Positions 11,278 through 33,151 of a stretch of 64,000 nt of DNA are shown piece after piece. The stretch comes from Gammaproteobacteria bacterium. Lineage in GTDB: Bacteria > Pseudomonadota > Gammaproteobacteria > UBA4575. The first letter of the stretch is position 1, and every line of letters starts with the position of its first letter. A model generated the notes under the pieces. That model was not told the DNA's origin and did not search any database. It worked only from the letters and a program-made list of their open reading frames with translations. The position numbers were made by a program, and so were the translations under genes. The DNA lies in the NCBI GenBank assembly GCA_965220875.1, contig OZ244849.1, positions 1,466,401 through 1,530,400 on the forward strand, written 5' to 3'.

Positions 11278-11538
11278 GGCAGCACAACACTTCAAATTGA
11301 GTGTAAGCACGTCTCTAAAGAATATTTTGCAAGACTTAAACGATCATCGCCCACTGTTAGGAGCAATTTTCTGCATACCCAAATACTAAATTCACTTTCT
11401 GTTCCCTTAGTTCTGACAAATGTTTCGTTCCCCTATCATCAGTGCCATACTATCAAGAAATTAAATCGTAATTTCAAGTTATGGGCTTGACTTGTGAGTT
11501 TAGCTGTATTATCATGCAGTTAACACAGGAGAGAAGCC

Positions 11539-15309: not shown

Positions 15310-15331
15310 TTTTCATGAGGCACACCTTTAT

Positions 15332-15844
15332 TCAGGCCCTAGAGTTACGGCTGCTAGTGCGTGTTGCCGGATCATCATAATCAGGGTTTCGCTCCACATC
15401 ACCCGTGTCGTTGACGCGGAATGGACGGCCTTTGGTTAGTCGGATCATATATTTTTGCCTTTCTCTATCTTTCCGGTTACTGATTGCTTCGACGATGGTT
15501 GCAGTATCAATACTTGTGTAATCTACCTGGCCTTCTTTGTCATGGTTTTTCCCGTATCGCGGTGGAAAGTCTAGGAAAGATTGGAATACACGCATGACAC
15601 GCTCGTCATATTGATCAGGATTCTTGAGAGCAAGATCAGCCAAAGTGACAGCACCCGCCGTGCGTCCTATGTAGGAGCTTCCTCGGATATTGCTATCCAA
15701 TAGCTCGGTTCCTACAACGAACTGATCTTCCAATCGATTCCTGTCGGCTACTTTAAAGCGCTGATGGGCAGTTATGAGTGCCAAGGCGGCAACTGCGGGC
15801 AACGCCAACTGCACCAACAACTCCGTCATGTAGACACATGTCAT
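15332..15844 (-). CDS. Membrane-anchored hypothetical protein (possible partner of the 5'-nucleotidase)
   Basis: N-terminal TM LLVQLALPAVAALALITA; 22 bp upstream of the nucleotidase gene on the same strand. Confidence 0.45.
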   Translation of the reverse strand: MTCVYMTELLVQLALPAVAALALITAHQRFKVADRNRLEDQFVVGTELLDSNIRGSSYIGRTAGAVTLADLALKNPDQYDERVMRVFQSFLDFPPRYGKNHDKEGQVDYTSIDTATIVEAISNRKDRERQKYMIRLTKGRPFRVNDTGDVERNPDYDDPATRTSSRNSRA

Positions 15845-16111
15845 GGTTTAGGCATCACACTTAGTATGTGCACTGATGTGAGTTCGGCTTTTGTCATCAT
15901 GCCATTTTTACAAACGCTTTGAATCTATTTATGATAGGTGATCACCAGTTTGATAATTTTTTCGCTAGCATTCAACATGAGAGTTACCTCCTGCAGTTAT
16001 GATGAAAACTTGTATTTTTATCAGATCAGGTTGAAACTCCAAACACTAGTTGCTTTTTGGTCATTTTAGTAAACATATCAAAGGTACCCTTGAACAGAAA
16101 GAGACAGCAGT

Positions 16112-16867
16112 ATGAACCGAAAGCAATTTATAGAATCTCAGGGGGCAACCTGTAAAAACTGGTCTTGGAGCTGGTCATTCATTAATGAGACCGAGAAATT
16201 CATAATATTTGGTGCATGGGATAAATACGATAGTGGTAACAAAGCCCTGATTTTTAGTAAGGATTGGGCAATCAGCCACAAAGGCAAAAGGAGTCAAGGA
16301 TACCGACAATCACGAGAGCACATACGGCTTATTGAAGAGGAAGGCTATCAACTTAAAACTTTCCCAATGGAGTACACGGTAGCTGATGAAAATGATGAAG
16401 AGGCGCCTGCAAAAATTAAGGGATTCACTCCAGAACTCAGTCCAAAAAAGCTAATTCGCATCGAGAACAATTGGTATGCCTCGGATCAGACTTGCGGGGC
16501 ACGCTTGCCAGAAGAAATATGTCCAGATGAGGTATTTAAGGAAGGAGCATCTAGAACTGTAATCGTAAATCAATATGAACGTAGTGCCGCGGCAAGATCA
16601 AAATGCTTGGAACATCATGGGTATAAGTGCGCAGTTTGTTCATTTGACTTTGAAAATACTTACGGTGAAATCGGTAAAAGCTATATTCATGTTCACCACA
16701 CTGTTCCAATTTCAGAAATTGGGGGAGAGTATGAACTTGATCCGATAAAAGATTTGATTCCTGTGTGCCCTAATTGTCATGCAATGATTCACATTACACG
16801 CCCTGCATTGAACATAGAACAATTAAGAAATCACATAAAAAATCATAGAAATCACGGCAGTGGTTGA
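16112..16867 (+). CDS. HNH endonuclease with uncharacterised N-terminal domain
   Basis: C-terminal CAVCSF...HVHHTVPISE...CPNCHAMIH HNH/zinc motif; N-terminal about 120 aa domain recurs as a stand-alone ORF at 44150. Confidence 0.7.
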   Translation: MNRKQFIESQGATCKNWSWSWSFINETEKFIIFGAWDKYDSGNKALIFSKDWAISHKGKRSQGYRQSREHIRLIEEEGYQLKTFPMEYTVADENDEEAPAKIKGFTPELSPKKLIRIENNWYASDQTCGARLPEEICPDEVFKEGASRTVIVNQYERSAAARSKCLEHHGYKCAVCSFDFENTYGEIGKSYIHVHHTVPISEIGGEYELDPIKDLIPVCPNCHAMIHITRPALNIEQLRNHIKNHRNHGSG

Positions 16868-16952
16868 GTTTGAAATGTTCTGCATTAACGTTATGTCATC
16901 ACGGCATATCTAGCATCCAGAAACAGCTAAGTGTCATTAGGTGTAACACAAA

Positions 16953-17699
16953 TCATAACTTCTTGAAGCTCTTCCCAGAAACCTCTTCAAATTTCCTTAA
17001 CAGATTGTGGTATTGATCAACTAGTCTTTGGTCACCAAATGCTTTGGCAGCATGTACACACACAGAAATACCTCTGTAGAAATAATTCCATAGATCATCC
17101 TTGTGTTCACTATAAACTTTGCATCTTCGCATACCGCGCATGTGAAATTGACCACCTTCGTACATATCCATTATTTGGGGCGACGCTGCATGTACATATC
17201 CAGAGTAGAATTTGCCTATAGTTCGCAGCAATTCTGTTCCACTGCTTGGGTCGAATGGATCAAATGTAGAACGGGCCAAATATGCTCGAATTTTCCGTCG
17301 AGGGACCATGGGCCGCTTCTGGGTTGATTGAATCGCCGTATCAGCATCGAATTCTTCTTCAAAAAATGCATCCAAGTAATCACGATGTAATGACGATGTA
17401 TAATCTCCTTGGAGAAATCCAAATACGAGGAAAAATATGTCCTCTTGAATCTCGTCTAAAACTCTCTGTAGACAAGCTTGCTCCTGCACAAAACCATGGT
17501 TGAGCAGAAGCCGTGCTGCATCAAGGGTACTTACCATGCGGGCCAGCTTTAAGACTATCGCTTGGAGAATCGTTTTCTCTGTATAACGAAATGCACGGAA
17601 ATCACCGAATTCTGTTAACTTCGGTTCAGGAACTTGATCGGCTAACGAATTCACTGCCTGTTCCAAGTGTTTCAAAATCTGTTCGTATATCTGGTCCAT
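16953..17699 (-). CDS. Hypothetical protein
   Basis: 248 aa ORF in the low-GC island; no recognisable motifs. Confidence 0.45.
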   Translation of the reverse strand: MDQIYEQILKHLEQAVNSLADQVPEPKLTEFGDFRAFRYTEKTILQAIVLKLARMVSTLDAARLLLNHGFVQEQACLQRVLDEIQEDIFFLVFGFLQGDYTSSLHRDYLDAFFEEEFDADTAIQSTQKRPMVPRRKIRAYLARSTFDPFDPSSGTELLRTIGKFYSGYVHAASPQIMDMYEGGQFHMRGMRRCKVYSEHKDDLWNYFYRGISVCVHAAKAFGDQRLVDQYHNLLRKFEEVSGKSFKKL

Positions 17700-17885
17700 T
17701 GCTCACATAATCTTTTGGTGTCTAAAGATAAGTTGTTGACAATTAGCCTAGCTTTTATAAGCACCATCATCTGAGATTTGAAATTGAAGCGGGCCAGCAA
17801 GAATTCCGCGATACCGTTAATGATATATTTGGGAATTATATATTTAAGTTTACAAAGCATCGAAGAAAGGTGCTGATTGAAATAA

Positions 17886-18194
17886 TCAGCTAACCCAAGT
17901 TATCGATGCTTCCTTATCAGTAGCCGGGCGGGGTTTAACTATAATTGCTGCATACGATAAATCATCTCCATGAGCATGCGGCAAAAAATACCTTGCTACT
18001 ACTTCATAGATTGTTCTGTTGGCGGGGTTATTACGATCTAAGCCTTTAACTACTCCTAGGTCAACAATAAGATCACCGATTACTGGCACGGTGTTAGCTA
18101 AATGAAAGAAGTCATATTCCCATCCTATGTCTTCATAACGGCCAGTGTTTTCATTTTCTATATGCAGCCGAATTGCAATCTCTTTTTCTGACAT
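17886..18194 (-). CDS. Hypothetical protein
   Basis: 102 aa ORF; RBS-like GGAGGAGAAT upstream. Confidence 0.4.
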   Translation of the reverse strand: MSEKEIAIRLHIENENTGRYEDIGWEYDFFHLANTVPVIGDLIVDLGVVKGLDRNNPANRTIYEVVARYFLPHAHGDDLSYAAIIVKPRPATDKEASITWVS

Positions 18195-18248
18195 AACATT
18201 CTCCTCCGTTGCTGTGTCTTTGGTGTATTAACTTAGTATAATATACTA

Positions 18249-18446
18249 ATGGAACAAATGAAATTTGAAGATTTAGCTGGGGAAGAGATTATCAGAAAAG
18301 CCAACCAGTGGCTTTATACTGCATTGGGAGAACAACATCTTCCTGCAGTATTTGAACAAAAACTCATGATGGCTTACCGCAGCACTAAAGATGTTCTCAA
18401 CTCCTTAGAAGAAATCAAGAATGAGGGGATGGAGAACCTTTTATAG
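18249..18446 (+). CDS. Small hypothetical protein
   Basis: 65 aa ORF with weak RBS; convergent with and overlapping a minus-strand small ORF. Confidence 0.25.
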   Translation: MEQMKFEDLAGEEIIRKANQWLYTALGEQHLPAVFEQKLMMAYRSTKDVLNSLEEIKNEGMENLL

Positions 18447-18588
18447 CTTCTCTAATCGCTTTAAGTTCTTTAACTGCTATTTCCATTAACTTATTCGTAA
18501 TTGACACTTGAGTTACTAAACTCGTTAACGTGTTGTTAATTATTTCTGCGTTCTCAGTTTTCGGTTTGTTTAATTCCTGTTCACTCAT
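18415..18588 (-). CDS. Small hypothetical protein (57 aa)
   Basis: Strong SD AAGGGAGGATAAAATG; followed by a GCCAGACTC...GAGTCTGGC hairpin at 18633-18664. Confidence 0.3.
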   Translation of the reverse strand: MSEQELNKPKTENAEIINNTLTSLVTQVSITNKLMEIAVKELKAIREAIKGSPSPHS

Positions 18589-18850
18589 TTTATCCTCCCT
18601 TCTTAATTGGACTAAAGTCTACTACAATAAAAAGCCAGACTCCTGTTAGCAAGAGTCTGGCCTGTGCCGCGAGGCAACAACGTGGGGGTTGTATACTCGC
18701 GTTAAGGGGCAAAGGTAGGATTTAGCAAATTCAACAAATGCCCCTGTTCAGATGTTAAGTGCAGCCTCCCGAAGGAGGCTGCGATGTCTACGAGTAAAGT
18801 GGGAGCTTCAACTCGTATACAAAGGGGGTGTCTAAGCCCCTTTGTTCTTG

Positions 18851-20296
18851 TCAGTCACGAGTCGTGCCAAAAGCACCAATCACGTGACCATCTTGGAAAT
18901 GGCCGGTGAATTCACCTGTAACGCCGGATGGGTATGTAGTAGTTGCCGGTCGTGGAGGAGTAGCCGCAGTGTCAGCTACAGGACCAAAGAGCCTACCTTG
19001 CCATTCTCCTGCGGTGTCGCCGGAACCAGTAGTGGCTCCAAAGGTTCCATCGTAAGATGTATTATCAGCATTTCCATCTCTTAAGTGGGCGCGGTTTAAT
19101 GTTAAACCCCAGTCAGAAATCCTGCCATTCGCATTATGGAAATTGCTTACTGTTCCACTAATCGTGAACTGATCCCTGTCTGAGATTTCATTGGATTTGT
19201 TGACATGTGGGCCAGTGCCAGACGTACTACCGAAATGAGCAGTCAATACTACGTCAGCAGAAAATTGCCCTGTTTCTACTGGAGTGCCTGTTACCTTGCC
19301 ATCTGCAACTTCCAAATCTTTCCGAGCATAGAGTCCTGTTGCGGAACCTTCGTAAGTGGCAGTACCATCTAGGCTATCAAGATCAGTACTCGTAAATGTT
19401 CCGTCAGTTGCAGATGTGTAGGGCATGTTACCGCCTGCAAAAGTACCAACTCCATATTTCATATCACTGCCCATGGGTGTTGTCTGTACCCAATACCCAA
19501 ATGACTGATAATCTGTATCAGGTAAAGCACCTGAGATCATATGAATATCTTGAGTGTCGTCTTTCGTATTATTTGGAGTAAAAGTCAAATTTCCGCCTGC
19601 TAGGGTAATCGCTCCATTACTGGCTGCATTCAAAGTGCAAGTCGCACTACATGTATATTTACCCGACACATTATGGAACGTTCCGTTAATTGCATTATTA
19701 TTCCCACTTGCAAGGCTCCTACCAATGCTAATTCCTGATATGCGATTAGCGAGCGCAGTAGGGATAGAACCCGCAGCAATTTCTATTGTGTTATACCTTG
19801 TAGTGCCTGTGGGTGGTGCATCTCCTGTAGGTGCTGCGGCCGTTACATTTACACCTCCTACATCTATTGCTCCTACTGTATAGAATAAATCCCATGCTTG
19901 GGGTTTTGCGTCAGCAACATCAGAATAGACTGTAAGAACATCTGTCTTGTTGTCTTTAACTCGGCTGTAAACGCTCGATTTTAGAGTTCCTATACTTAGC
20001 CGAGATTCAGAGGATGCATTAAATTCTTCAGTGTTAAGAATAGTGACATCATTCATTCCCAATCTGTCACTATCTACAGTAAGCATCCCATTACGCCCAT
20101 AAGTTGTATCAGCACTTGGACGCTTACTATGGTTTAGTTCGCTTCCAGTGGGAACACCAGGCTCTCCATCCCCGTCAGGGTCAGCAATAGCTTCTGTCAA
20201 TCCTGCAATTCGCGCCAACTCTGCCTCACTAGGTCCAGGCTCCATGCAGTTTGGTGGCGTTCCGACTTGTCCTTCCGGACAAGTATCTGCCATCAT
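18851..20296 (-). CDS. TbpB/fHbp-like beta-barrel domain protein lacking a signal peptide
   Basis: 481 aa; C-terminus GEFTGHFQDGHVIGAFGTTRD resembles the handle/barrel end of Slam-type surface lipoproteins; in-frame TAG immediately upstream of the MMADT start, so no leader; Gly/Thr/Ser-rich. Confidence 0.5.
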   Translation of the reverse strand: MMADTCPEGQVGTPPNCMEPGPSEAELARIAGLTEAIADPDGDGEPGVPTGSELNHSKRPSADTTYGRNGMLTVDSDRLGMNDVTILNTEEFNASSESRLSIGTLKSSVYSRVKDNKTDVLTVYSDVADAKPQAWDLFYTVGAIDVGGVNVTAAAPTGDAPPTGTTRYNTIEIAAGSIPTALANRISGISIGRSLASGNNNAINGTFHNVSGKYTCSATCTLNAASNGAITLAGGNLTFTPNNTKDDTQDIHMISGALPDTDYQSFGYWVQTTPMGSDMKYGVGTFAGGNMPYTSATDGTFTSTDLDSLDGTATYEGSATGLYARKDLEVADGKVTGTPVETGQFSADVVLTAHFGSTSGTGPHVNKSNEISDRDQFTISGTVSNFHNANGRISDWGLTLNRAHLRDGNADNTSYDGTFGATTGSGDTAGEWQGRLFGPVADTAATPPRPATTTYPSGVTGEFTGHFQDGHVIGAFGTTRD

Positions 20297-20471
20297 CTCT
20301 TCTTCATCCTCGAAGTTTGCACGGACTTGGCTCTGAGCAAATCTATGTCTATATTGGGTAGACTAAAGACCTTTGATAGCAGCCAGGGAAACACAAACAA
20401 GCAGTTGGCATTTGCAAGTTGATGAATTACAAATTCGTAGTTACAATTATATTGTTATAGAGGGTTAGATT

Positions 20472-20762
20472 TTGCACTGGACATGGGATGAAAACAAAAA
20501 CTGCATCAACAAGCGGAAACACGGCATAGGTTTTGAGACGGCGCAGTTCGTGTTTGGTGACCCGCTGATGGTACAAAGGCAAGATCCAAACTCGGAAGAT
20601 GAACGATGGCATACCATTGGTATGATCAGCAGTGTGGTGGTGATTGTGGCACATACATGGCCCGGATCAGAACATGAAACAGGTCTGGAAGTGGGTCGTA
20701 TATTCAGTGCCCGGAAAGCCACAGCACATGAAAGGAGAGCCTATGAAGAAGGGGATTTCTAA
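20472..20762 (+). CDS. brnT: BrnT-family toxin (DUF497 ribonuclease)
   Basis: WDENKN..KHGI.FE.A N-terminal signature of BrnT. Confidence 0.7.
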   Translation: MHWTWDENKNCINKRKHGIGFETAQFVFGDPLMVQRQDPNSEDERWHTIGMISSVVVIVAHTWPGSEHETGLEVGRIFSARKATAHERRAYEEGDF

Positions 20763-21021
20763 ACAACTTACCAAAAAGCAAAAGGCAGAGATTGAAGCGC
20801 TTGCTGCGCTTCCCGATGAGAAAATTGATACAAGTGATATACCAGAGATTCTGGATTGGGCTGGAGCAAAGCGTGGTCTTCTATATCGGCCGGTCAAGCA
20901 ACAAATCACATTGAGACTGGATGCCGACGTTGTGGCTTGGTTCAAGTCGAATGTCCCAGATGGACGCAAATACCAGACCGAGATTAACCGTGTTCTTCGT
21001 GAGTATGCTCTGCGTGCCTGA
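20743..21021 (+). CDS. brnA: BrnA-family antitoxin (RHH/CopG-like)
   Basis: Overlaps the brnT stop by 20 nt; ~92 aa; C-terminal RKYQTEINRVLREYAL typical of BrnA. Confidence 0.6.
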   Translation: MKKGISKQLTKKQKAEIEALAALPDEKIDTSDIPEILDWAGAKRGLLYRPVKQQITLRLDADVVAWFKSNVPDGRKYQTEINRVLREYALRA

Positions 21022-21775
21022 AACTGCGAGTAGTGAAGTGTAGTGGTTTTGTGTGGGGCTAGGAAGTTGCAGGTGAGGGTTTTACGCTGTGGGCATCGCT
21101 CAGATATTTGATACACATGCGGCAGGTGGATCACCATTGGTCGGACGGGCCACCTCTACATGCATAAACTAGAAGCTGGTTTCGGATTCTATGCTGACAA
21201 CGACCTTGGCGGTTCAGTGAACGGACCAGGGGAAAGCAGTACGATACAGGATGTTGCTGCATATATCATGTCTGTGCTAACGAACGGAAGATACTGGGAG
21301 TACATCACGGCAACATCCGGGAATGGCTGACACGGTGCTCAAATGGGTCCTTGAAGCATCTAAACAAGAGAACTCGGAAGCAAAAATAGGTCATCCCAGC
21401 ACTGGCAGGGTAGCTTACACTCAGCCCCTGGCTTCCAAGGTCCAAACTTGGCGGCAACTTTGATTGCATCATTATCTGCAAGCTTTCGTTCTGGCTAGAA
21501 GGAATCTGGTAGCCCCGGCAAGTTTGTCAAGCAAATGCAGGCCAAGCATCCAGGACAACGAGCCGGAAGTCCAAGCACGGATTCCACGTCACTACCTGAG
21601 AACGCAGAGAGCGTGGTAGTGATGCGTGACATTCGGAGCGCAGGGCAAGGCAACACTATTATATTCGGGCTGCGAGGCTCGAATGCTCTACGAATGTCGG
21701 TACTTCTGCCAGTACAATGAAAAACAGGACTGTCTTAAAGTAATTAGAGATAGTAACTTAGGACCATCATTCGAT

Positions 21776-21943
21776 TTCTGCTAAGACGGCTAGGCTCAGT
21801 TCAGGTACACTTATACACACAAGAGAAACTACTACAGGAGTATTGTAGATTGCGGTCAGGTTTAGTTCAGATACACTCGAACAGATGAACTGCCTGACTT
21901 ATCTCCTATTGTAGATTGCGGTCGGGTTTAGTTCAGATACACT
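21776..21943 (+). CRISPR. Minimal CRISPR array: degenerate repeat, spacer, repeat, spacer, repeat (36-nt repeats ATTGTAGATTGCGGTC[A/G]GGTTTAGTTCAGATACACT, 30-nt spacers)
   Basis: Two near-identical 36-mers at 21842-21877 and 21908-21943, plus a degenerate copy ending at 21811; spacers TATACACACAAGAGAAACTACTACAGGAGT and CGAACAGATGAACTGCCTGACTTATCTCCT; repeat ends GTTGTAG.../...CTACAAT-like as in type II-C. Confidence 0.75.
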
Positions 21944-22188
21944 ATAGCCTGTATAAGCTACTGATAATAAAGGGGAGCTTAGAATATGGATAGTTGTTTT
22001 GGTGCTTGTTCTGTCGGAACACGCTTTGAACCTTGGTAGACTTGCATCCTTTCAAATTGCTTCTCCGTTATCTTTAAAATGCGTACCTCCCCCTTCGGGG
22101 GGAGTATCTTTTTTCGCATTTGTACGCTTTTGGACTTGACAAGTTAGGGTAGTCCCTGTAGTCTATAATCATAGACAAGGGGGCTGAT

Positions 22189-23095
22189 ATGAACATACTA
22201 GATATCTTCCAATCATTCAAAACACAAGAGCAGGCTATCGAATACCTTGAGCAGGTACGCTGGAAAGGCGAGCCGGTTTGTCCATACTGCAAAAGCAAAA
22301 AAACTCACCGGCATGCCAGCGGTGACAGGGCTGACACTCGTTGGCAGTGCCAAGAGTGCACACGGGCCTTTTCAGTCAAGGTAGGCACCATCTTCCACGG
22401 GACACACATTCCCTTGCAGAACTGGTTTCTGCTATTGGGCCTGATGCTGAATGCAAAGAAATCAGCCAGTGCGTGCCAACTGGCCCGTGATCTTGGAATG
22501 AGGCGGCCTACAGTATGGCGCATGATGCACAAGGTTCGCGTGGCTATGGCTAATGATCAAACACAGTCAGATTTGCTTCATGGCATCGTAGAAGCAGATG
22601 AAACCTATGTGGGCGGCAAGCCACGCAAGAGAAAAGTTAACAAAAACAACGATCTACCCCCCCCCCTCAGCCCCTAGAGGCCGTGCTACCCGTAAAACCC
22701 CGGTAATAGGTGTCGTAGAACGTCATGGTCAGGTAAGGGCAGCGACTGCTGAAAGGCGCGACCTGTCAGCCAAAGGGCTGACCCGATTTATCAAGAAACA
22801 TGTGGACCCTGAAGGCTCATGGTTAATGACTGATGAGTACCGTGCCTACCGAAGCATGGCCAAGTTCATTGACCATTCTGTTATTGCCCACACAAGAACG
22901 TATGTTGAGGGGATAGTACACACCAACACGATTGAGGGTTTTTGGGCACTGCTGAAACGTGCATGGTTCGGGTCACACCATCACTACAGCAAAAAGTACA
23001 TGGATTTGTACGTGTCCGAGGCTTGCTACAAGTACAACAGGCGTGAGCACAAGTGTTCATTTGATCACTTGTTGGGGCTCATGGTCAACGCATGA
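22189..23095 (+). pseudogene. IS1595-family transposase disrupted by a frameshift at a 10-C homopolymer
   Basis: ORFs 22189-22677 and 22598-23095 together span a full transposase (zinc ribbon ... HTNTIEGFWALLKR); frame changes at C10 tract 22657-22666. Confidence 0.8.
22657..22666 (+). repeat. Poly-C homopolymer (10 C) inside the transposase coding sequence
   Basis: Seen directly; the copy A transposase has no such tract at the corresponding position. Confidence 0.9.
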
Positions 23096-24729
23096 ACCGG
23101 CTGTACTATGGCGATAATCTTACAATCATGCAAAAGGAGATCGCCGCCCAGTCTGTTGATCTGATCTATCTTGATCCACCCTTCAATTCACAAAAGAATT
23201 ACAACCTGATTTACACACAGGCCACGGGGAAGCCTGTCCCCGCACAGGTGGAAGCCTTTTGTGATACATGGGAACTGGATGCCGAAAAGGAAGAGCTGGC
23301 AAGCAAGATGCCGGTTATCTTGAGAGCCCATGAAGTAGAGGACTATTACGTTAAATTCTGGCGGTACTGGATACTTGCATTACGCAATACCCATCCCAAA
23401 CTTCTGGCCTACCTGCTGTACATGGTGCAAAGGCTTTTGTACATGAAAATTTTATTGAAGCCTACAGGGGCTATCTATCTTCACTGCGACCCGAATGCAA
23501 GCCACTACATCAAAGTCATGATGGATGGGATATTCGGACATGGCAACTTTCGGAATGAAATTACCTGGCGGCGTGTAACTTCGGATCAGAAGGGCAGCCA
23601 ACATGACAGGAAGAGCTGGGGAAACAACGCGGATATCATTCTGTTCTACACAAGGTCCAACCAGTACAAGCTGCATGGAACGCGGCCATTGACTACAGAG
23701 GAAGCTGTTCAGAAATTTAACCAGACTGACGAAACTGGCAGGCGTTATTACGATGACAGCTCACACATATGGAGGACACCCGGCATGGGGCCTCGGCCTA
23801 ATCTGTGCTACGAATGGCGCGGATTTACAAACCCGCATCCAAGCGGGTGGAGGCTGAAGAAGGAAAGGCTTGAAGAGGAATACCAGAAAGGCAATATTGT
23901 TATCCGGCCTGATGGCAAGCTGGAGCGCAGGAAATACGAGGAAGATTATCCGGGTGCGCCAATCGGGAATATATGGACAGACATTGGCCCCGTCCCTGCC
24001 AGAAGTGGTGAACGTATAGGCTACCCTACACAGAAACCAGTGACCCTGCTCAAGCGTATTGTTAGGGCTTCTTGCCCACCTGACGGGCTTGTTTTCGACC
24101 CTTTCTGCGGATGCGGAACTACGACCTACGCAGCACAGGAAACGGGTCGCCGCTGGATTGGATGCGATATAGCGATATTGGCTATCAAGCTGATCAAATA
24201 CAATCTTGAAAAGGCATATGGATTGCACGAAGACAGGGAATTTGAAATTGACGGAATCCCGGTGAGTGTGGAAGGTGCTGTACAGCTATTCAGGAAAGAC
24301 CCGTTTCAGTTCCAGCATTGGGCTGTGGAGCGGGTGGACGGTTTCCCTACTCAAAAGAAAGTGGCAGACAAGGGCATAGACGGCAATATCTATTTTGAAA
24401 CGGATGACGGCTACAAGGACATGGTTATATCTGTGAAGGGCGGGACAGTAAGACCGACAGACATACGCGATCTGAGAGGCGTGCTGGAACGTGATACGGA
24501 CAGTGGCACAGTGATGGCGGGGTTTATATCAAACAGGGAACCTACCAAGGCTATGAAGGATGAGGCGGCCAAGGCAGGCATGTATACTTATGCAGGCCAT
24601 GATTACGAACGCATCCAGCTATTGACTACCAAACAGATACTGGAAGACAAGATGGAGTTCAGGACACCCAGTAAAATTGGTGTGAAGCAAAAGATGGGAC
24701 AGCTAAACCTTGACATCATCAGAGCGTAG
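23092..24729 (+). CDS. Beta-class DNA methyltransferase with C-terminal PD-(D/E)xK-like domain (paralog of 12423-14021)
   Basis: DPPF ... FDPFCGCGTT; C-terminal GIDGNIYF...VISVKGG; ATGA overlap with the transposase stop; roughly 55-60% identity to the copy A MTase by eye. Confidence 0.75.
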   Translation: MNRLYYGDNLTIMQKEIAAQSVDLIYLDPPFNSQKNYNLIYTQATGKPVPAQVEAFCDTWELDAEKEELASKMPVILRAHEVEDYYVKFWRYWILALRNTHPKLLAYLLYMVQRLLYMKILLKPTGAIYLHCDPNASHYIKVMMDGIFGHGNFRNEITWRRVTSDQKGSQHDRKSWGNNADIILFYTRSNQYKLHGTRPLTTEEAVQKFNQTDETGRRYYDDSSHIWRTPGMGPRPNLCYEWRGFTNPHPSGWRLKKERLEEEYQKGNIVIRPDGKLERRKYEEDYPGAPIGNIWTDIGPVPARSGERIGYPTQKPVTLLKRIVRASCPPDGLVFDPFCGCGTTTYAAQETGRRWIGCDIAILAIKLIKYNLEKAYGLHEDREFEIDGIPVSVEGAVQLFRKDPFQFQHWAVERVDGFPTQKKVADKGIDGNIYFETDDGYKDMVISVKGGTVRPTDIRDLRGVLERDTDSGTVMAGFISNREPTKAMKDEAAKAGMYTYAGHDYERIQLLTTKQILEDKMEFRTPSKIGVKQKMGQLNLDIIRA

Positions 24730-24731
24730 CA

Positions 24732-24971
24732 CTAGTATAGTCCAAAAGCGTACAAATGCGTCTTTTTTATTCTTTTGCAGTGTACTTCTGCACTTTCATC
24801 ACTGGCACAGTGTCTAGTGTAAACGGAGTACTGCAGCATTACAAAGCCGTCCGTCATTAGTCTTTTGCGAAATCTACTGTACTGGTATCGGTCAGATTTG
24901 GTTTCGGTTGGGAGGTCAAAAAGAACCATAGTCCACAAACTTCGAAATCCTCCGAAAATGATTTCAGTCAT
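24732..24971 (-). CDS. cas2: Cas2, C-terminally truncated by the IS insertion (last 9 codons and stop supplied by the IS end)
   Basis: MVLFDLPTET...RFRKRLMTDGFVMLQYSVY matches type II Cas2; the reading frame continues across the empty site into a Cas2-like C-terminus ending at 21979. Confidence 0.75.
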   Translation of the reverse strand: MTEIIFGGFRSLWTMVLFDLPTETKSDRYQYSRFRKRLMTDGFVMLQYSVYTRHCASDESAEVHCKRIKKTHLYAFGLY

Positions 24972-25855
24972 ACCAAAGCAGGAATAGTCAGCTTACCTTT
25001 ATGTGTTTCCAACACTTTGCGCAAACTAGCGCAGTAGACTGCCAGCGCACTCATGCAGGGGGTTTTGCGTTTTTTGATTAAAACTGGAGCACTGAGTACT
25101 GTAAGTAAATCATTTTTTGCATTTCTATCCAATCCATTGAATGTTTCGGCTTGTGACAATTTTGCGACACACCGATCTATCAACGGCCTTAGTGGTTCCA
25201 TTACATCATCAGCCAAACAAAAAACATTGTATTGGTTATGATGATGTATGCCGAAAGCAGGATGTAGCCCTGCACTCATGAGTGCACGAGAACATGCTGT
25301 CCGAATCAGACTGTACCCATAATTCAGAAGAATATTTACATCATTTGATCCACTCTGATCCCGTTTGAAATCTTTACCAAAAAGAGATTTGAAGTAGATT
25401 CGAGATGCTTGGGATTCATGATTAGCCGTATCATTCAGTCGCACCGTTTTTGCCAGTCGTTGCAGTCTGGCACTTGTAATCCCATGAACTGAAGTGAGCA
25501 CTGCCGACTGCGTGTAGATTTTTGCTCGAATGATTTGCTGCCAAATAATGTGATGTACTTGTTCTGGAGTTGACGCTTGCATGCGCATAATCCTGCCTTG
25601 AGTTGTATGAGCATCGAGTGGTAAAAGCAGGGAGGCAGGGAGGTGTTTTTCATCCGTGACAATGAGTGCAATGTTTTGTTTGGCACAGTGTCGAAATACG
25701 CTTTGACTGCACGTAATCTGTGGATTGTCCAGAATCAAAAAAGCGATATCATCAAAAGGAATGCTGTGTTTGCCTTCCTCATTTAGGACGATCAACTGGT
25801 TAAGACTGACTTGAAGATGTGCTTCTGAAGAAATTTCTATAGTTCTACGGATCAT
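24968..25855 (-). CDS. cas1: Cas1 (type II)
   Basis: About 295 aa from ATG 25855 (ATGA overlap with the cas9 stop); Cas1-like throughout; an upstream GTG at 25930 is an alternative start. Confidence 0.8.
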   Translation of the reverse strand: MIRRTIEISSEAHLQVSLNQLIVLNEEGKHSIPFDDIAFLILDNPQITCSQSVFRHCAKQNIALIVTDEKHLPASLLLPLDAHTTQGRIMRMQASTPEQVHHIIWQQIIRAKIYTQSAVLTSVHGITSARLQRLAKTVRLNDTANHESQASRIYFKSLFGKDFKRDQSGSNDVNILLNYGYSLIRTACSRALMSAGLHPAFGIHHHNQYNVFCLADDVMEPLRPLIDRCVAKLSQAETFNGLDRNAKNDLLTVLSAPVLIKKRKTPCMSALAVYCASLRKVLETHKGKLTIPALV

Positions 25856-28800
25856 GCTGACGATAACAACCCCAGGTTTCCTAACTCTACCTTCCTGCAG
25901 TTCAGTTTGTCCAAGGATGTAATTCGCCACATTCCCCAGTCTGATTCAGTCCCCGAGACACTATGATGGCGCAGAAAAAGGTCTATCCTCTTGTCACCAC
26001 TGCCGCTCATTTTCTGCACTCTGAAGTACGGTGTCTCTGCGTGCTCAGGTGCAAATTTATTCATATCTTTAAATATACTCATATCCTCGCAATACACCAT
26101 ATCATTGATGCATAGATCCAATTCGTAATACCACCCTTCCAACTCAGAAGGCGGCTCTTTTACTATGACCGGTTTTCCTGCACTGGCACGCTTAGCGGCC
26201 TCCAGCATTGTTATAATCTGAAATCGCCTTTCTTTGTTAGTACCCTCCTGTCCATTATGAAAGATGATCATGTGATGATTGCTGCCGGACAGGACATATG
26301 AGTTGCCTGTCTTGATATAAGATTTTGTCATCGGTCGCGCAATACGAGCTTTCAGGATAGGGGTAGAGGGATTACCTCTTTTGTCAAGCACACGAGGTGG
26401 TGTCTTATCTAGTTTCGCTTTAATTGTGCTGGATTTTTCTCCTACTAGATTATTTATTTCCAACCAGTAGAAAAGGGCATCATGAATAGATTTCTCAACT
26501 ACCCATGTACCAGTCCCTGGTGTCCAATTCCTGGAAAGTTTGGACAGGTACTCAGCTGTCAATTCCTTGCGGCAAGTCACACAAGGTGTCTGATAGATAA
26601 TTTTTGTCAGCTCTTTTCCTTTCCAACGGGGCAATGTGCGGTCAGTTGGCTTAAGTTTTTTTACTTCCGCAGCCCAATGTAACAGGACTGAGCGCAGGTC
26701 CTCATCCAGAATACAACTGCCGCCATCCCCATCTGGTTCAGCTTGTGCAATTTGCTGCACTTTTTTTAGAATATTTGACCTCATGCTCTCAATGTTCAGG
26801 CACTGGTCAAAGTACGATTTTCCATAATTAGTCTCTTCGTGCAAAGCGCCCCAGACTTTGCGTTTGATCATGTGGGATACGACAGTGGTATTCAACCGAT
26901 TACTCAAAAGACTGTGCAAGTCATGACTATCCTCCCAGCTTGTAGACAATCTCAAACGATTCTTCTTGATCCAGTCTTCTTTGGTAGTTCGATGCGGCAA
27001 AAACTTCTTATCCTGTTCCTTTTTATGGGCTTCAATCATTGACTTCAGCATGGCCCGGTCAGTAATGGCCACCACAAACGCATCCACTGCGTGATGACGA
27101 TGGTCGTGTCTCGATTTCTCAGACTTTTCTGCTTTGTCCGCACTATATTGCAAAATTTCACCTGTCTCTGTATCAATCTCTTTACCTGTTTCTATATAGA
27201 CACCAGAATCAGGTTTCCGAGGCAAAACGGAGTTCAATCCCAGTCTCCGACGAAGCTCACTTGTAGCTGCACCGTTATTAACGTCGATTGGTACTCCATA
27301 TTTTTCCAACATCTTTTTTGAAGCTGTAGCAATGTACCGGGTATCATTGAGTTGTCTATTTACGAAATCACTTTCACTTTCCGGGCAATGTGCCTTTTTA
27401 AGGAGATTGTTTCGCTTGCGGAGATTCTGATCCTTGCCAAATTTTTCCTTGGCGAACTTCTCTATATGCTGCCATCGATTCTCATTATGTCCCCAAGCTT
27501 CATAAGGTGTTTGCTTTCCTTTTTCATCATTACAACTGCGGCAACTGACAAGCGTATTCATGTAATTCTGTCTGAAACCTGTGTACGGAAGGATATGCTC
27601 AACTTCTGCTCCACCAGAAAACAGTTGACCGATACCGATCAACTTCTGGCAGTAAGGGCATTGCTCATCCTGCTCTTTCCACATCTTGTATTTTGATCGG
27701 TCATCAGGACTGATACGGCAGGCGACACCTCCTCGCACTCCCTCCAGGTTGATCCCGATACTGCCTGTTTTGTAGTGTTTCAGAATTTCCTCTTCCGCAT
27801 CCTCGTTTCGTTTCCTGTTCTGATTTTGCTGGCTTGCAATCTCAGCACGGTGCCTTTTTGAAGATTTCATCTCCCGCGCCATCTCAATACGGATAATGGC
27901 TGGCTTGCCATAATGCTTCACAATTGCATTCACTACGCGACGTATTTCATAGAGCGCTTTCTGCACGGTCGGGTTCGCTATATTCGGGACATCCTCAATT
28001 TTCAACAGGTACCCTTCGTTAGTCGCTTTCTGTATCTTAGTAATGCTTTCAATTTGTCCAATTTGTTTTACTGCTGCATAAAGGTCCATACCATCACGCA
28101 GATGAGGGAGTAATTCGTTGATAGCCTTAAGACTGTACTTACTATAGCCATCTTCCAACTGTTCGTTCACGGCAAGTCCCAAAGCACCCTTTTCATGGTC
28201 ACGATTAGGAAGATAGGAAGGAAACTTCCAATACTTAACAAGTCTGTCATACAACGTTTTTTTATTGTGCATTGTATGCAGATCTTCAACTAATTTAGTC
28301 TGCTTTTCCTTACCTAATTGCTGCCACGCTCGAATACCAATTGAATGGCTGACGGCTTGAGCCGTTCGATTCCCGATGAGGCCATTTTTCCCTGCACCGT
28401 CATCACGACTCTCGCCATAATTTAGATCCTTGACCTTCACATCTAGCGCCCTAGCAACTTCTTTCCACGAGATACGCCCTTGCCTGTTTAATCTCTCTGG
28501 ATCGTCAGCTAAGTTCGTCAACTGCTCTCGCTGCTCTGCAGTTAACGGTTTTTCACCGATCTGTATATTGTTGATGACCTGAAGGGTCCGGAATTCCTGG
28601 AATTCCAGCCGCATCACAGTTGTGCGTTTCTTTTTTGGATAGATGCTGCAGTTACCTACCGTACTCTTTTGCAATTGAAGCGGGCGTTGATCGAAAATTG
28701 CATCTTTTATCCTAGTAGATTCGTCCTCAGAAAAATGTTGAAAAGAATGTTGCTTTTCCCATATAGCATCAAATTCCCTTTCATACATTTCGCGACTGGC

Positions 28801-29595
28801 ACGAAATTCCAATTTTTCAATAACAGTTTCACCTTTATGGGGTTTGGACCTTTCAAACTGAAACAGCGTGATGCGATGAGGTGGTATTTGCTTATCCTGC
28901 GATGCCTGCCAAATAAACTGGCCAAGGGTACGGTTGCCAAGCTTTTGATCTAACTCGTCAATCGCTGCTAAAACAAGACCTGTTTCTCTTTTCTCCTCCC
29001 CACTCAGGGTGTCCTGATCATCTTTAGGCGTTATGAGGTTCAAGGACTTAATCAGTTCAACATACTTTGCGCCCCGATTGCTGAAATACCCACGTCTGCG
29101 TTGCAAATGCAGTAGCAATCTACCAAACTCGTGAGGCTCCAGTTCTTCTACCAAAGAAAAATTTCGCATGGCATAAGGAGAGCAGTACGCTTTGTCAGTA
29201 ACAGACCATGCCTTGGACCAGGGTTTGCCAAGCTTGCGTTCGGCATATCTTCGGTCGATTTTATTAAGCGCTTTTTCCGGATTTACTTGGTAGTCCTGAG
29301 GTAGCAAACCTTTATTTAGAAGTATGCTTACAAGTTTTTTACGACGTTCTTTGTAATATGCTCGACGGTTGCGGGCACCATGTGCCTCACGGCGTTTTTG
29401 ATTTTTTGGGACCCGTGTTTTGGCCTCCAGCATCTCCAAAAATATGCGAGAGTTCAAAGCGCGCAATGAAACCGGCTGATAGCCGGCATAAATTCCTTGA
29501 TGGTTGCCTTCCTCTAGCTTGCAATCTACAACTGCCCATCCAATAGAACTGGAACCCACATCTAGGCCAAGAATGTAGGAATCTTTGTTTTGCAT
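25852..29595 (-). CDS. cas9: Cas9 (type II-C-like, 1247 aa)
   Basis: RuvC-I ILGLDVGSSSIGWAVV; arginine-rich bridge helix; HNH CPYCQ...EVEHILPYTG...CRSCNDEKG; RQLNDTRYIA and HHAVDAFVVAIT RuvC motifs; no csn2 or cas4 nearby. Confidence 0.9.
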   Translation of the reverse strand: MQNKDSYILGLDVGSSSIGWAVVDCKLEEGNHQGIYAGYQPVSLRALNSRIFLEMLEAKTRVPKNQKRREAHGARNRRAYYKERRKKLVSILLNKGLLPQDYQVNPEKALNKIDRRYAERKLGKPWSKAWSVTDKAYCSPYAMRNFSLVEELEPHEFGRLLLHLQRRRGYFSNRGAKYVELIKSLNLITPKDDQDTLSGEEKRETGLVLAAIDELDQKLGNRTLGQFIWQASQDKQIPPHRITLFQFERSKPHKGETVIEKLEFRASREMYEREFDAIWEKQHSFQHFSEDESTRIKDAIFDQRPLQLQKSTVGNCSIYPKKKRTTVMRLEFQEFRTLQVINNIQIGEKPLTAEQREQLTNLADDPERLNRQGRISWKEVARALDVKVKDLNYGESRDDGAGKNGLIGNRTAQAVSHSIGIRAWQQLGKEKQTKLVEDLHTMHNKKTLYDRLVKYWKFPSYLPNRDHEKGALGLAVNEQLEDGYSKYSLKAINELLPHLRDGMDLYAAVKQIGQIESITKIQKATNEGYLLKIEDVPNIANPTVQKALYEIRRVVNAIVKHYGKPAIIRIEMAREMKSSKRHRAEIASQQNQNRKRNEDAEEEILKHYKTGSIGINLEGVRGGVACRISPDDRSKYKMWKEQDEQCPYCQKLIGIGQLFSGGAEVEHILPYTGFRQNYMNTLVSCRSCNDEKGKQTPYEAWGHNENRWQHIEKFAKEKFGKDQNLRKRNNLLKKAHCPESESDFVNRQLNDTRYIATASKKMLEKYGVPIDVNNGAATSELRRRLGLNSVLPRKPDSGVYIETGKEIDTETGEILQYSADKAEKSEKSRHDHRHHAVDAFVVAITDRAMLKSMIEAHKKEQDKKFLPHRTTKEDWIKKNRLRLSTSWEDSHDLHSLLSNRLNTTVVSHMIKRKVWGALHEETNYGKSYFDQCLNIESMRSNILKKVQQIAQAEPDGDGGSCILDEDLRSVLLHWAAEVKKLKPTDRTLPRWKGKELTKIIYQTPCVTCRKELTAEYLSKLSRNWTPGTGTWVVEKSIHDALFYWLEINNLVGEKSSTIKAKLDKTPPRVLDKRGNPSTPILKARIARPMTKSYIKTGNSYVLSGSNHHMIIFHNGQEGTNKERRFQIITMLEAAKRASAGKPVIVKEPPSELEGWYYELDLCINDMVYCEDMSIFKDMNKFAPEHAETPYFRVQKMSGSGDKRIDLFLRHHSVSGTESDWGMWRITSLDKLNCRKVELGNLGLLSSA

Positions 29596-29624
29596 TTTTT
29601 GAATTTAGGTACTAATATGTGGGG

Positions 29625-29732
29625 TACTAAATAGTGTATCTGAACTAAGCCTGCTCGTTTTTTACAACAAAATTCTAGCAGGATATGTCTTTTATGACTA
29701 AACCTTAACGCCTCTCAATGGGGCGTTTTTAG
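29625..29732 (+). ncRNA. Candidate tracrRNA (anti-repeat + intrinsic terminator), divergent from cas9
   Basis: 29633-29668 AGTGTATCTGAACTAAGCCTGCTCGTTTTTTACAAC is complementary over about 30 of 36 positions (including G-U pairs) to the CRISPR repeat; hairpin CGCCTC-TCAAT-GGGGCG followed by TTTTT at 29709-29730. Confidence 0.6.
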
Positions 29733-30979
29733 TTTTAGGCAACTTGAATTTTAGAGGCCACCCTTTTTGGTACCGCATTGAGTACGAATCTGGCGGACTA
29801 TGCAGCCTTCAATGCCACATAATTACTGGACGTGATTATCCCCTGAAAACAAGTACAACTGTATTATGTGATTTTGCGATCATCCGAGGATAGCCGATGA
29901 CAGCGAGTTTCGCACCTACTTCTGTATTGAACAAGTACTGTGATTTGTGGGTCACTTGTAATCCTGCGCGTGGTGAGTAAGTCTATACTCAGTATGGGTG
30001 TTATGAGCATGATTCCCTGTTCATGCAAGCCCTAGGTAAAAAGGCACCCGAAAATACATTTTCATTCCTTGGGATACAGGCCATCGCTACTGGATAGTAG
30101 AGGCCAAGTCTACCTATCGTAGCTTTTCTCTAAGCCTTGGGAGAGGCACAAGACTACTCTGACAAAGTGAATCAACTTGGAGTTGGGCTCAGCAAGATTT
30201 GCCACTGAAATTGCAGGCACGATCAGTCTTTTTATGTAACTATTGCTTATTGGAATGGTAAAGAATGGCTTGAAGTTGCCATCAATAATTACGAAACCAC
30301 AGGCTTTCATACTCTAGACCAGTGCCTGAACATTCTGGACAGGAACAGCAACATTCTACCTCTTTTCGATGATGAGCCAGACAGGTTCTTGCGTAATGTA
30401 AACGCTATAAATCAGACCTTGCATGACAATGAAGTGCCAGCAAGAACAGGGCAAGCGTTATGGCAGCTCTATTGCTAGCAGTAGTGCAAGACGGGAAATT
30501 TACGTATCCATGCTAAGCTTAAGATTACTAATTCCGTAGTCAAATCAGGTGTACAGGCAGCTTGAATTGTCAGCCACTCTGCTGCTTGTATTGATCACTT
30601 CCTTACCGTCTTGGGCTGAAACTCTAAGGGATTTGCCCGAGTTAATACTCGTCTGATACGGCGGAAAATACTGGACTGTACATGTCCTGAGAGGACAGTA
30701 GTGGCTATCGCACCCAGACTGGCAAACGCCCTATTGCATCAACACAGAAGGCTGTTGCCATTGCTTCAGACCGAAATGATGAACGGGGCTCTTATTTCTT
30801 TTGATCACCTAGCAGGACTCACCGCTAAAGGTGGTGAATATGTGCGGAATCCTAAGAGCTTGCTTTGGTCTAAAGCGTTGCGAGAACTGAGAGATCAAGG
30901 CATTAGTAGTAACGACAGCAACGTTGATTGAGTATATCCCTGTCTTGATTTCTAAACTCTTAGACGTCAAATAAAAATT

Positions 30980-31471: not shown

Positions 31472-31798
31472 CTAAGCGTCGCTTTGATGCGTTATTTGAG
31501 GCAATGGTCGTCCGAGGCCGGTCACCAGATCGTCGAAAATCGAACCCGGCTGTTCGCGACGGTTGTAGCGGTAGTTGAACTCTTTCATGTGCTTCCAAAG
31601 GTGCTGCTTCGAAACGTGTACATGCGTCCCCCGAATTGAAAACTTTAAACGCGACCAGAAAGTTTCAATCGAATTAACATGAACATCACTCCTTGCAATA
31701 CATGCATGGTTAAGTGGTGATAGGTGTTCTGAGCTGTACTGTAGCGGTTTGTCCGATGACGATGAAATCACCGCCGAGTATTGCCGGACCATGCACAC
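31472..31798 (-). pseudogene. IS1595-family transposase C-terminal fragment
   Basis: HVNSIETFWSRLKFSIRGTHVHVSK...YRYNRR matches the transposase C-terminus; the N-terminal half is missing where high-GC DNA begins. Confidence 0.7.
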
Positions 31799-31969
31799 AA
31801 TGGACAGGGCCTGTGTGCTAGTCTAAATCTGGTTGTTTATCCATTGAGGTTTGACAGGTGAGACCGTAGACTTTGTCATGACTTGCTCGCATGCCAGCCT
31901 GTGTAGAAGGTTATCGCGTTCATGCATCTGGCACGAGCTACATCATCCCAGTACTTTTCGGGAAAGCCG

Positions 31970-33151
31970 ATGCTGACATTTACAGAGGAACTCTTGCTCA
32001 TGCTGGGGGATGAGGAGGGCCTGTTTCTTCCCGTCAAGGAACATGCCTTTGAATGTGCACTGGCCGGTGCCATCCTGATGGATCTTGCCTTCGCATTTCG
32101 TATTGACACAGACCTGCAGGCACTCGTGGTCACCGACCCCACCCCTACGGGCAATCCCATGCTCGATTATGTGCTGGCAAAGATTGTTGCCCGCACGGAC
32201 ATTACAGACACCCCGACCTGGATCCGGGTCTTGGCCACCGAGGATGCCGCAGTGATTCGTGAGCAGGCCCTGGATGGCCTAGTGGGGCACCGCATCCTGA
32301 AAAGGCAGCACAACCGCTTTCTGGGGGTGTTTCGCTCCACCTGCTATCCCACCCTGGATGACCGGCCCGTGCAGGCGATCAAGTCACGCATCGAGGCAGT
32401 CGTCTCCGATGACATTCCGGACCCGCGGGACGTGGCCCTGATCTCCCTGGTGGACGCCTGCCAGATTCTCCCTGACCTGTTTCCCAAGTGGGAGGCGGAA
32501 CGCACCAACTCCCGGCTTGATCTGTTGCGCAGGATGGACCTGATCGGTCGCGAGCTCACCGGCACCATCACCGAAATCCAGAGCCGGATCATCCGTGCGG
32601 CACGCGCCCAGGCAGAACGCTTCAGGAAGACCCTACTAAGCCTGGCTGCGGTGGGCAGCGCGGCCACGATCGCAACCCTGCTGGTGCCGAGTATCGGGGT
32701 TCCGGACCGCTGGGGTCCTTCGCTCCCCGGGCTGCTCTGGTTCGACGGGTTCTGGAAGCAGTTCAGCGGCTACCTGCTGCTTGCACTCAGCATGGCCGGG
32801 CTGACAGTCGCGGTCACAATCAAGAAGCAGCTGCTGGCCTGGGTCTCGGGTTCACATCGCTGGAGGCTTTCCCACATCGTACTCGGCCTCGGCTGTGTAT
32901 TCATCCTCTTCATGCACACGGGATTTCGCCTGGGCAGCAATCTGAATGCCGCGCTGATGGGCAGTTACCTCACCGTGCTGCTGTCGGGCACGCTGGTCGG
33001 CGTGGTGGTCGGGGCAGCGCCGCGACTCAAGCAGATGGGCCTGCACAGGATCGGCCCGGCCCGGCGCACCCTGCTTTGGGTCCATGCCCTGGCGACTTGC
33101 CTGCTGCCGGCCCTGCTCATCGTTCACGTACTGTCCGTGTATCTCTACTAG
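31970..33151 (+). CDS. GPP34/GOLPH3-like domain protein with C-terminal multi-TM domain
   Basis: MLTFTEELLLMLGDEEG N-terminus resembles GPP34-family proteins; 4-5 C-terminal TM helices; about 65% GC. Confidence 0.5.
   Translation: MLTFTEELLLMLGDEEGLFLPVKEHAFECALAGAILMDLAFAFRIDTDLQALVVTDPTPTGNPMLDYVLAKIVARTDITDTPTWIRVLATEDAAVIREQALDGLVGHRILKRQHNRFLGVFRSTCYPTLDDRPVQAIKSRIEAVVSDDIPDPRDVALISLVDACQILPDLFPKWEAERTNSRLDLLRRMDLIGRELTGTITEIQSRIIRAARAQAERFRKTLLSLAAVGSAATIATLLVPSIGVPDRWGPSLPGLLWFDGFWKQFSGYLLLALSMAGLTVAVTIKKQLLAWVSGSHRWRLSHIVLGLGCVFILFMHTGFRLGSNLNAALMGSYLTVLLSGTLVGVVVGAAPRLKQMGLHRIGPARRTLLWVHALATCLLPALLIVHVLSVYLY

Follow-up and report, generated by a model that had tools for sequence, protein, structure and literature searches.

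A type II-C CRISPR-Cas9 locus with cas2 interrupted by an IS1595-family element and a nearly empty array

Which parts of a CRISPR-Cas9 system are likely to stay usable once a mobile element has landed in one of its genes? This question is raised by the locus at positions 21776-29732 of a 64,000-nucleotide stretch of DNA from a gammaproteobacterium (contig OZ244849.1, positions 1,466,401 to 1,530,400; hereafter the window), in which cas9, cas1 and cas2 lie on the minus strand and cas2 is interrupted by an insertion sequence (IS) of the IS1595 family. Judged from comparisons of DNA and protein sequences, it is quite probable that we are looking at a chromosomal type II-C locus caught shortly after this insertion; spacer acquisition has most likely been lost, while the components of interference, namely cas9, the trans-activating CRISPR RNA (tracrRNA) and two CRISPR RNAs (crRNAs), are most likely usable. 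The first-pass annotation of this span, made from the sequence alone, had treated cas1 and cas2 as intact, had made no mention of the IS with its transposase and methyltransferase genes, and had overlooked the fact that the array is nearly empty.

For comparison, ten related loci (L001-L010) were retrieved, whose Cas9 proteins are 62-94% identical to that of the window. One of them, L001 (OZ242278.1), is the chromosome of a gammaproteobacterial metagenome-assembled genome (MAG) and is 94.7% identical to the window. From position 29829 to 24760, an interval that takes in cas9, cas1 and cas2 codons 1-70, the window aligns collinearly with L001, and the alignment resumes at 22114-21842; the intervening 22115-24760 is absent from L001. 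The features of the cas operon and of the inserted element are as follows.

25852-29595, minus strand: cas9, an intact and uninterrupted open reading frame (ORF) of 1247 codons
24968-25855, minus strand: cas1, intact, 295 amino acids
24761-24971, minus strand: 5' fragment of cas2, native codons 1-70
22115-24760, plus strand: IS1595-family transporter IS of 2,646 bp, inserted in cas2 at codon 70
22107-22114 and 24761-24768: 8-bp target duplication, AAAAAAGA
22115-22135 and 24740-24760: perfect 21-bp inverted repeats of the IS, CGCATTTGTACGCTTTTGGAC
22189-23095, plus strand: IS transposase gene (zinc ribbon and ISXO2-like DDE domain), split by a +1 frame change
23092-24729, plus strand: IS gene for an N6/N4 DNA methyltransferase of 545 amino acids with a C-terminal restriction-endonuclease-like domain, overlapping the transposase gene by 4 nucleotides
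about 21979-22106, minus strand: 3' fragment of cas2, codons 71-112 and stop, frame still open, 2.65 kb from the 5' fragment

The two genes required for an intact adaptation module have thus fared differently. Cas1 matches the type II Cas1 model TIGR03639 (cas1_NMENI) with 284 bits against a cutoff of 120, is 97% identical to Cas1 of L001, and its gene shows a dN/dS of 0.13 between the two loci. In contrast, the cas2 reading frame that starts at 24971 runs through the 70 native codons and nine further codons contributed by the IS to a stop at 24732 (79 codons in all), and the match of its product to the Cas2 profile is confined to positions 4-58 of 96. In-silico excision of the IS together with one of the two copies of the target duplication restores a Cas2 protein of 112 amino acids, and the detached 3' fragment is 91% identical to residues 69-112 of the L001 protein (tblastn). 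Since the Cas2 protein is left without its C-terminal 42 residues, spacer acquisition has most likely been lost; Cas1-Cas2-mediated spacer integration would then no longer occur, and a short array could not be refilled. The ATGA overlaps reported in the first-pass annotation are present both at the cas9/cas1 and at the cas1/cas2 junction.

Hallmarks of IS1595-family elements are found in the inserted DNA. Its transposase matches PF12760, PF12762 and NF033547, the 21-bp inverted repeat occurs in the window only at the two IS ends (no occurrence is expected by chance), and the 8-bp sequence duplicated in the window is present in single copy in L001. The insertion looks simple and recent: both the inverted repeats and the target duplication are perfect, and the frame of the cas2 remnant has stayed open. 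Elements of the IS1595 family that carry passenger genes, end in inverted repeats of about 25 bp and produce 8-bp duplications have been described as a class (PMC5704250); with its members tISCpe8 and MTnSag1 the window element shares the zinc ribbon and ISXO2-like DDE transposase, the 8-bp duplication and the single passenger gene (PMC5704250). It differs from both by inverted repeats of 21 rather than 25 bp, by a passenger that encodes the methyltransferase instead of a resistance determinant, and by a transposase gene that is frameshifted as assembled. This frame change lies in a run of ten C residues (22657-22666), and removing one C yields a 301-amino-acid protein collinear with a paralogue; the run could reflect a consensus error or be a tract prone to slippage, by which the transposase is switched on and off.

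The array that follows the cas2 3' fragment is reduced to two intact repeats and one degenerate repeat that enclose two spacers, and it was not scored by Tandem Repeats Finder. Its parts, together with those of its presumptive control regions, are these.

21776-21943, plus strand (crRNA sense): CRISPR array with 36-nucleotide repeats and 30-nucleotide spacers
21776-21811, plus strand: degenerate terminal repeat, 62% identical
21812-21841, plus strand: spacer
21842-21877, plus strand: intact repeat
21878-21907, plus strand: spacer
21908-21943, plus strand: intact repeat
21944-21978: leader-like non-coding stretch from the cas2 stop to the first repeat, with the motif CCTGTATAAGCnnCTGAT
22087-22114, plus strand: terminator-like GC hairpin and T-tract, on the antisense strand within the cas2 3' fragment, downstream of the array

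Relatives with an intact cas2 gene carry 18-50 repeats directly after it, 29 in L001; this count leaves aside L005 and also L004, which is truncated at the end of its contig. The far end of the L003 array (about 10150-10220) runs into an assembly gap, with a long C homopolymer and a string of N residues, and its 18 repeats are therefore a minimum. Short arrays of Neisseria meningitidis (Nme) are normally refilled through acquisition that depends on Cas1-Cas2 and is stimulated by apoCas9 (PMC12477760), and by analogy the broken cas2 gene would explain why the array of the window has stayed nearly empty. The motif CCTGTATAAGCnnCTGAT between the cas2 stop codon and the first repeat is conserved across loci, and the stretch that contains it is leader-like in that it resembles the Neisseria leader adjoining the cas-proximal repeat (PMC12477760).

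The interference half of the locus presents itself differently. Across its whole length the Cas9 protein matches the equivalog model TIGR01865 with 521 bits, and profile searches recover HNH_4, RuvC_III and the alpha-helical lobe Cas9_a, so that the RuvC and HNH motifs that had been read from the sequence in the first-pass annotation are borne out and the failure to align to such profiles, which had been named as a refutation, did not occur. As compared with 40 homologues, the catalytic residues D12, E571, H667, N689, H835 and D838 are all kept, and cas9 shows a dN/dS of 0.16 between the window and L001. An AlphaFold2 model of residues 48-1247 (mean pLDDT 80.9) finds ThermoCas9, Nme1Cas9 and GeoCas9 as its top whole-length Foldseek matches. 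Sequence searches of the PDB give GeoCas9 entries at E values of 7.5e-44 to 5.5e-41, ThermoCas9 at 1.3e-43 and Nme1Cas9 at about 1e-33, with the small II-A enzymes St1Cas9 and SaCas9 weaker; the latter two are also among the fold matches. The protein therefore has what defines a type II effector: a single large polypeptide with a split RuvC and an inserted HNH domain, conserved catalytic residues and a full-length fold match to solved Cas9 structures.

Its size had been singled out as unusual, a view that finds little backing. About 55 database clusters at least 45% identical to the window Cas9 measure 1221-1304 amino acids, and the length of 1247 amino acids is therefore a property of the whole clade and not a special trait of this gene. 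Cas9 lengths overall span 984-1648 amino acids (PMC3936727), and with CbCas9, a II-C enzyme of 1442 amino acids (PMC13153721; PMC12669027), the II-C range already extends from 984 to 1442, so that the window protein falls inside it. Structure prediction had been proposed as a means to define domain insertions; the approximately 160 residues in excess over GeoCas9 are dispersed along the protein, with some 77 of them ahead of residue 252, 10 or so in REC/HNH, roughly 17 in RuvC-III and some 57 beyond residue 923, and an extra domain is not apparent in the model. GeoCas9 and ThermoCas9, the II-C enzymes of Geobacillus that are the best matches by PDB sequence and by whole-chain fold, share with the window protein the domain order RuvC-I, bridge helix, REC, RuvC-II, HNH, RuvC-III and WED/PI; apart from its greater length, the window enzyme differs from them in an HNH motif that reads E-H instead of D-H, and in that it comes from a gammaproteobacterial MAG and is known from sequence alone.

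The second component of interference, the tracrRNA gene, lies between cas9 and the end of the span.

29633-29730, plus strand: tracrRNA gene, divergent, just upstream of cas9
29633-29668, plus strand: 36-nucleotide anti-repeat, resembling the reverse complement of the CRISPR repeat
about 29687-29698, plus strand: small GUC/GAC hairpin
29707-29730, plus strand: intrinsic terminator, made up of a stem (29707-29727) and, after it, a T-run

A -10-like TAATAT is present at 29613-29618, which would place the 5' end of the RNA a few nucleotides upstream of the anti-repeat. The gene is found divergently upstream of cas9 in 10 of 10 related loci, where the surrounding intergenic DNA is unconserved; its conserved parts are the anti-repeat, the segment AAAAUUC-AGCAGGAUAU, the GUC-loop-GAC hairpin with a variable loop, and the GC-rich terminator with a loop of variable length. 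To assess the pairing, we joined the repeat of each locus to its own tracrRNA and aligned the resulting 11 sequences (the window and L001-L010). The repeat:anti-repeat duplex comprises 32 bp, is 99.7% paired and contains nine compensatory pairs; none of 500 shuffles matched these values, and sliding the register lowered the pairing to 32-46%. RNAalifold independently arrives at this duplex as well as at the small hairpin and terminator, the fold of the tracrRNA has a z-score of -3.35, and one G-to-A change between the repeats of the window and L001 is mirrored in the anti-repeat. Sequence comparison thus strongly supports the assignment of this RNA, for which an Rfam scan of 21000-30500 gave no match at E values up to 1. 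The anti-repeat and terminator that had been placed upstream of cas9 on the opposite strand are hence confirmed, although the spacing to the cas9 ATG is 37 rather than 38 nucleotides, and the description of the tracrRNA as divergent holds for its direction of transcription but not for its sequence, which is highly conserved within the clade. The claim that a guide scaffold can be formulated is likewise borne out by the related loci: the predicted single guide can be written as spacer followed by AUUGUAGAUUGCGGUCAGGUUUAG-GAAA-CUAAGCCUGCUCGUUUUUUACAACAAAAUUCUAGCAGGAUAUGUCUUUUAUGACUAAACCUUAACGCCUCUCAAUGGGGCGUUUUU.

Two observations on the tracrRNA region stand beside this. The anti-repeat segment CCUGCUCG is able to pair with the conserved downstream CUAGCAGG (window 29650-29723; tracrRNA positions 18-25 and 42-50), and in the free tracrRNA such a hairpin would compete with crRNA pairing; the intramolecular CCUGCU/AGCAGG hairpin is 90.8% paired across the 11 loci, with zero compensatory changes. 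In L008, alone among the relatives, a single degenerate repeat, ATTGTAGATTGCTGTCAAGCTCAGTTTAAATAAAAT, stands in crRNA orientation in the interval that separates the start of cas9 from the tracrRNA gene (about 3830-3900). A minus-strand candidate for the cas9 promoter, TAGTCA-17-TAGAAT, lies within the tracrRNA gene; its key -10 position coincides with the only column that varies in the alignment of the tracrRNAs, and we therefore do not regard it as a conserved feature.

How the array is expressed can be outlined from these features. As the anti-repeat and terminator of the tracrRNA are on the plus strand, the crRNA would likewise be read from the plus strand, convergent with the cas operon; in II-B and II-C systems, but not in II-A systems, the array is read opposite to the cas operon (PMC3936727), and by sequence inference the window locus conforms to this II-C arrangement. 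Transcription of the array probably starts at promoter-like elements inside the repeats, as described for Neisseria and Campylobacter (PMC5965381; PMC12477760): each intact repeat contains TTGCGG-N16-TACACT, with TACAAT in several relatives, and the degenerate terminal repeat has kept the TACACT box and lost its 5' half. In crRNA biogenesis of the Nme type, every repeat holds a promoter and the 5' end of the crRNA falls within the spacer. The transcript would probably end at the hairpin and T-tract at 22087-22114. The hairpin of this probable terminator is kept in 9 of 9 relatives with cas2 (L001-L004, L006-L010), and the terminator overlies the cas2 codons for LPPKGE, where synonymous sites are kept and the CCC and GGG codons are invariant; the T-tract is the very point at which the IS inserted. 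A crRNA composed of a spacer and the 5' part of a repeat would pair with the tracrRNA anti-repeat, Cas9 would bind the duplex, which RNase III may trim, and DNA flanked by a protospacer-adjacent motif (PAM) would be cut by the HNH and RuvC sites.

The best-studied counterpart is the Nme1Cas9 system of N. meningitidis. It shares with the window a gene set limited to cas9-cas1-cas2, a 36-nucleotide repeat that starts with (A/G)TTGTAG and ends in a -10-like TACA(A/C)T, 30-nucleotide spacers, an array that faces the cas operon, and a leader-like sequence adjoining the cas-proximal repeat; the Neisseria-type repeat ends noted in the first-pass annotation are therefore real. Nme1Cas9 is among the top matches in both fold and sequence, though with only about 18% identity over the full-length structural alignment (Foldseek). 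The window system differs in a Cas9 that is about 165 amino acids longer, in the sequence of its tracrRNA scaffold, and in its disrupted cas2 gene and two remaining spacers. The extended -10 element of the Nme repeat has a TG that the window repeat does not have.

Several points weigh against the picture of an intact interference half beside a freshly broken adaptation half. The HNH motif of the window Cas9 reads E-H instead of D-H, although the glutamate that precedes the HNH histidine is the consensus of this family. The repeat-internal promoter is a weak match (7 of 12 consensus positions) and was not flagged by a consensus scan; start sites, repeat-internal promoters and the array terminator are all read off the DNA by inference. 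For the two window spacers, no match turned up in the window itself or in the related loci, nor in collections of phages and plasmids or in IMG/VR, the latter searched for exact matches to the 24-nucleotide 3' portions of both. Searches against phages gave chance matches only, at E values of about 2, and for the L001 array a single chance 23-mer; the 250 spacers of the relatives matched only intra-array duplicates when compared with the window and all loci, and none of their 245 unique spacers matched a plasmid. Since no spacer target was found in the collections searched, the PAM cannot be derived from the array. Finally, the frameshift in the C run may be an error of assembly or consensus, and the window is probably a metagenome assembly, like its closest relatives, so that the IS could represent the state of a sub-population.

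The strongest competing explanation holds that the whole locus is a decaying relic, in which cas9 and the tracrRNA gene are unused and will erode, and in which nothing is functional. It draws on the two spacers left in the array, neither of them with a detectable target, and on the fate of L005 (1479-5900), which has kept cas9 and the tracrRNA gene but lost cas1 and cas2 and carries eight repeat copies, each different from all the others; erosion evidently recurs in this clade. Yet even L005 retains cas9 and the tracrRNA gene. In the window the cas9 frame is uninterrupted with all of its catalytic residues in place, its dN/dS is low, repeat and anti-repeat have changed together since the split from L001, and the recent look of the IS leaves little time for decay. 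We therefore regard a relic as unlikely.

That the locus is fully functional, adaptation included, is very improbable. This would call for the IS to be an artefact of assembly or a minority variant, or else for the 70-residue Cas2 stub to suffice. The apparent metagenomic origin of the window and its relatives lends it some support, as does the frameshifted C run, which suggests that some consensus errors are present. The junctions, however, are exact and are accompanied by an 8-bp duplication whose sequence occurs once in L001, and thus bear the signature of a real transposition rather than of a chimeric join; moreover, relatives with an intact cas2 gene have arrays 10 to 25 times as long, and the match of the stub to the Cas2 profile ends at position 58 of 96.

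The assignment to subtype II-C is well supported by gene content, the type II Cas1, and the nearest solved sequences and folds, as had been proposed from the start. Among the window ORFs tested, which lie between about 11.5 and 36.6 kb, none gave a Csn2 or Cas4 match; the gene calls listed for eight relatives include neither gene, and the relatives show the same three-gene layout. A different or new subtype, be it a II-A system that lost csn2, a II-D system or a distinct long-Cas9 subtype, has a next to negligible chance: the length of Cas9, about 160 amino acids beyond the Nme and Geo enzymes, and the presence of SaCas9 and St1Cas9 among the matches speak for it, but II-C enzymes are the best matches in both sequence and fold, the Cas9d (II-D) model NF049971 is hit with 75.6 bits against a cutoff of 375, csn2 and cas4 were not found, the array faces the cas operon, the repeat ends are Nme-like, and the II-C size range already accommodates such a protein.

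Read as a II-C locus that has lost adaptation and kept interference, the window offers a clean natural case of a mobile element that knocks out one half of a CRISPR system and leaves the other intact, and the near-empty array fits the Cas1-Cas2-dependent refilling of II-C arrays (PMC12477760). It also adds an uncharacterised clade of II-C Cas9 proteins with a writable crRNA:tracrRNA scaffold that could be used for a PAM screen or for ortholog mining, although the practical value is limited. Our appraisal is a modest one: the locus is an ordinary II-C system, notable mainly for the clean disruption of cas2 and the collapsed array, and it leaves the current understanding of type II systems unchallenged.

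A bolder, twofold proposal goes further, and we consider it improbable as a whole: that the clade of Cas9 proteins of about 1220-1310 amino acids is a biochemically distinct II-C lineage, and, separately, that IS1595-methyltransferase elements prefer CRISPR-cas loci. The first part could appeal to the enlarged REC and PI regions, the conserved E-H of the HNH domain, the possible fold-back of the anti-repeat on AGCAGG and the probable array terminator antisense in cas2; if it were true, an unusual PAM or some form of self-regulation would be possible. The clade was seen here in gammaproteobacterial MAGs and in many metagenome contigs. If the second part were true, as the insertions in cas2 here and beside cas3 of Rhodomicrobium lacus would suggest, these elements would be agents that disable host immunity.

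Homologues of the IS methyltransferase provide the context for the latter idea. Those listed are 54-64% identical (L012, 1605-6611, which is R. lacus CP125860.1; L013; L014; L015), and in 3 of 3 cases in which the context was checked, the gene directly follows an IS1595 transposase gene with the same 4-nucleotide overlap. Many of the homologues come from short contigs (about 2.2-3.7 kb), as one would expect if the element is repeated. The IS1595-methyltransferase element of R. lacus has its end 55 bp upstream of cas3 in a type I-C system, which is a second case beside CRISPR-cas genes.

The IS in cas2 is not the only one of its family in the window.

11467-14059: second IS1595-family element of the same architecture, with 22-bp inverted repeats, CGTAATTTCAAGTTATGGGCTT
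11539-12426: its transposase gene, intact, 295 amino acids, overlapping the methyltransferase gene
12414-14021: its methyltransferase gene, 535 amino acids with an Mrr-like domain, 45% identical to the methyltransferase of the IS in cas2

No obvious target duplication flanks this second element, which lies at the border between conjugation genes of 67% G+C and a region of low G+C content. Two further IS1595-related remnants lie on the minus strand: a C-terminal fragment of DDE_Tnp_IS1595 at 31472-31798 and, at 43279-44319, an ORF that encodes a zinc ribbon of the IS1595 type. The IS1595 family has thus been active repeatedly in the genome of the window.

On both sides of the CRISPR locus the window is syntenic with L001, except for about 10.8 kb (10983-21792) that have no counterpart there; in more distant relatives, the locus lies between varied housekeeping genes. 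Positions 1-10980 (67% G+C) encode type IV secretion proteins of a conjugative element (TraC, TraU, TraG_N, DUF2895, DUF3438, DUF1525), while the G+C content is 40-49% between about 14 and 32 kb, the part that contains the CRISPR region. In L001 the homologous conjugation block begins about 0.8 kb beyond the CRISPR array. That the locus is cargo of the neighbouring conjugative element was considered and is not established; no integrase gene was found beside the tRNA-Pro gene at 51701-51777.

The low-G+C stretch 14329-21137, located between the array and the second IS, contains the following genes.

14329-15309: 5'-nucleotidase, PADLOC candidate PDC-S08
16112-16867: HNH endonuclease
20644-21021: BrnA antitoxin

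Several further ORFs of this stretch have no family match, for example 18851-20296 (481 amino acids), and it may be a small defence island. Downstream of the tracrRNA gene, the plus strand encodes at 31922-33151 a protein of 409 amino acids with a GPP34 (Golgi phosphoprotein 3) domain (E value 2.6e-39). GPP34 is a mostly eukaryotic family, and the presence of such a protein hints at a host-associated lifestyle.

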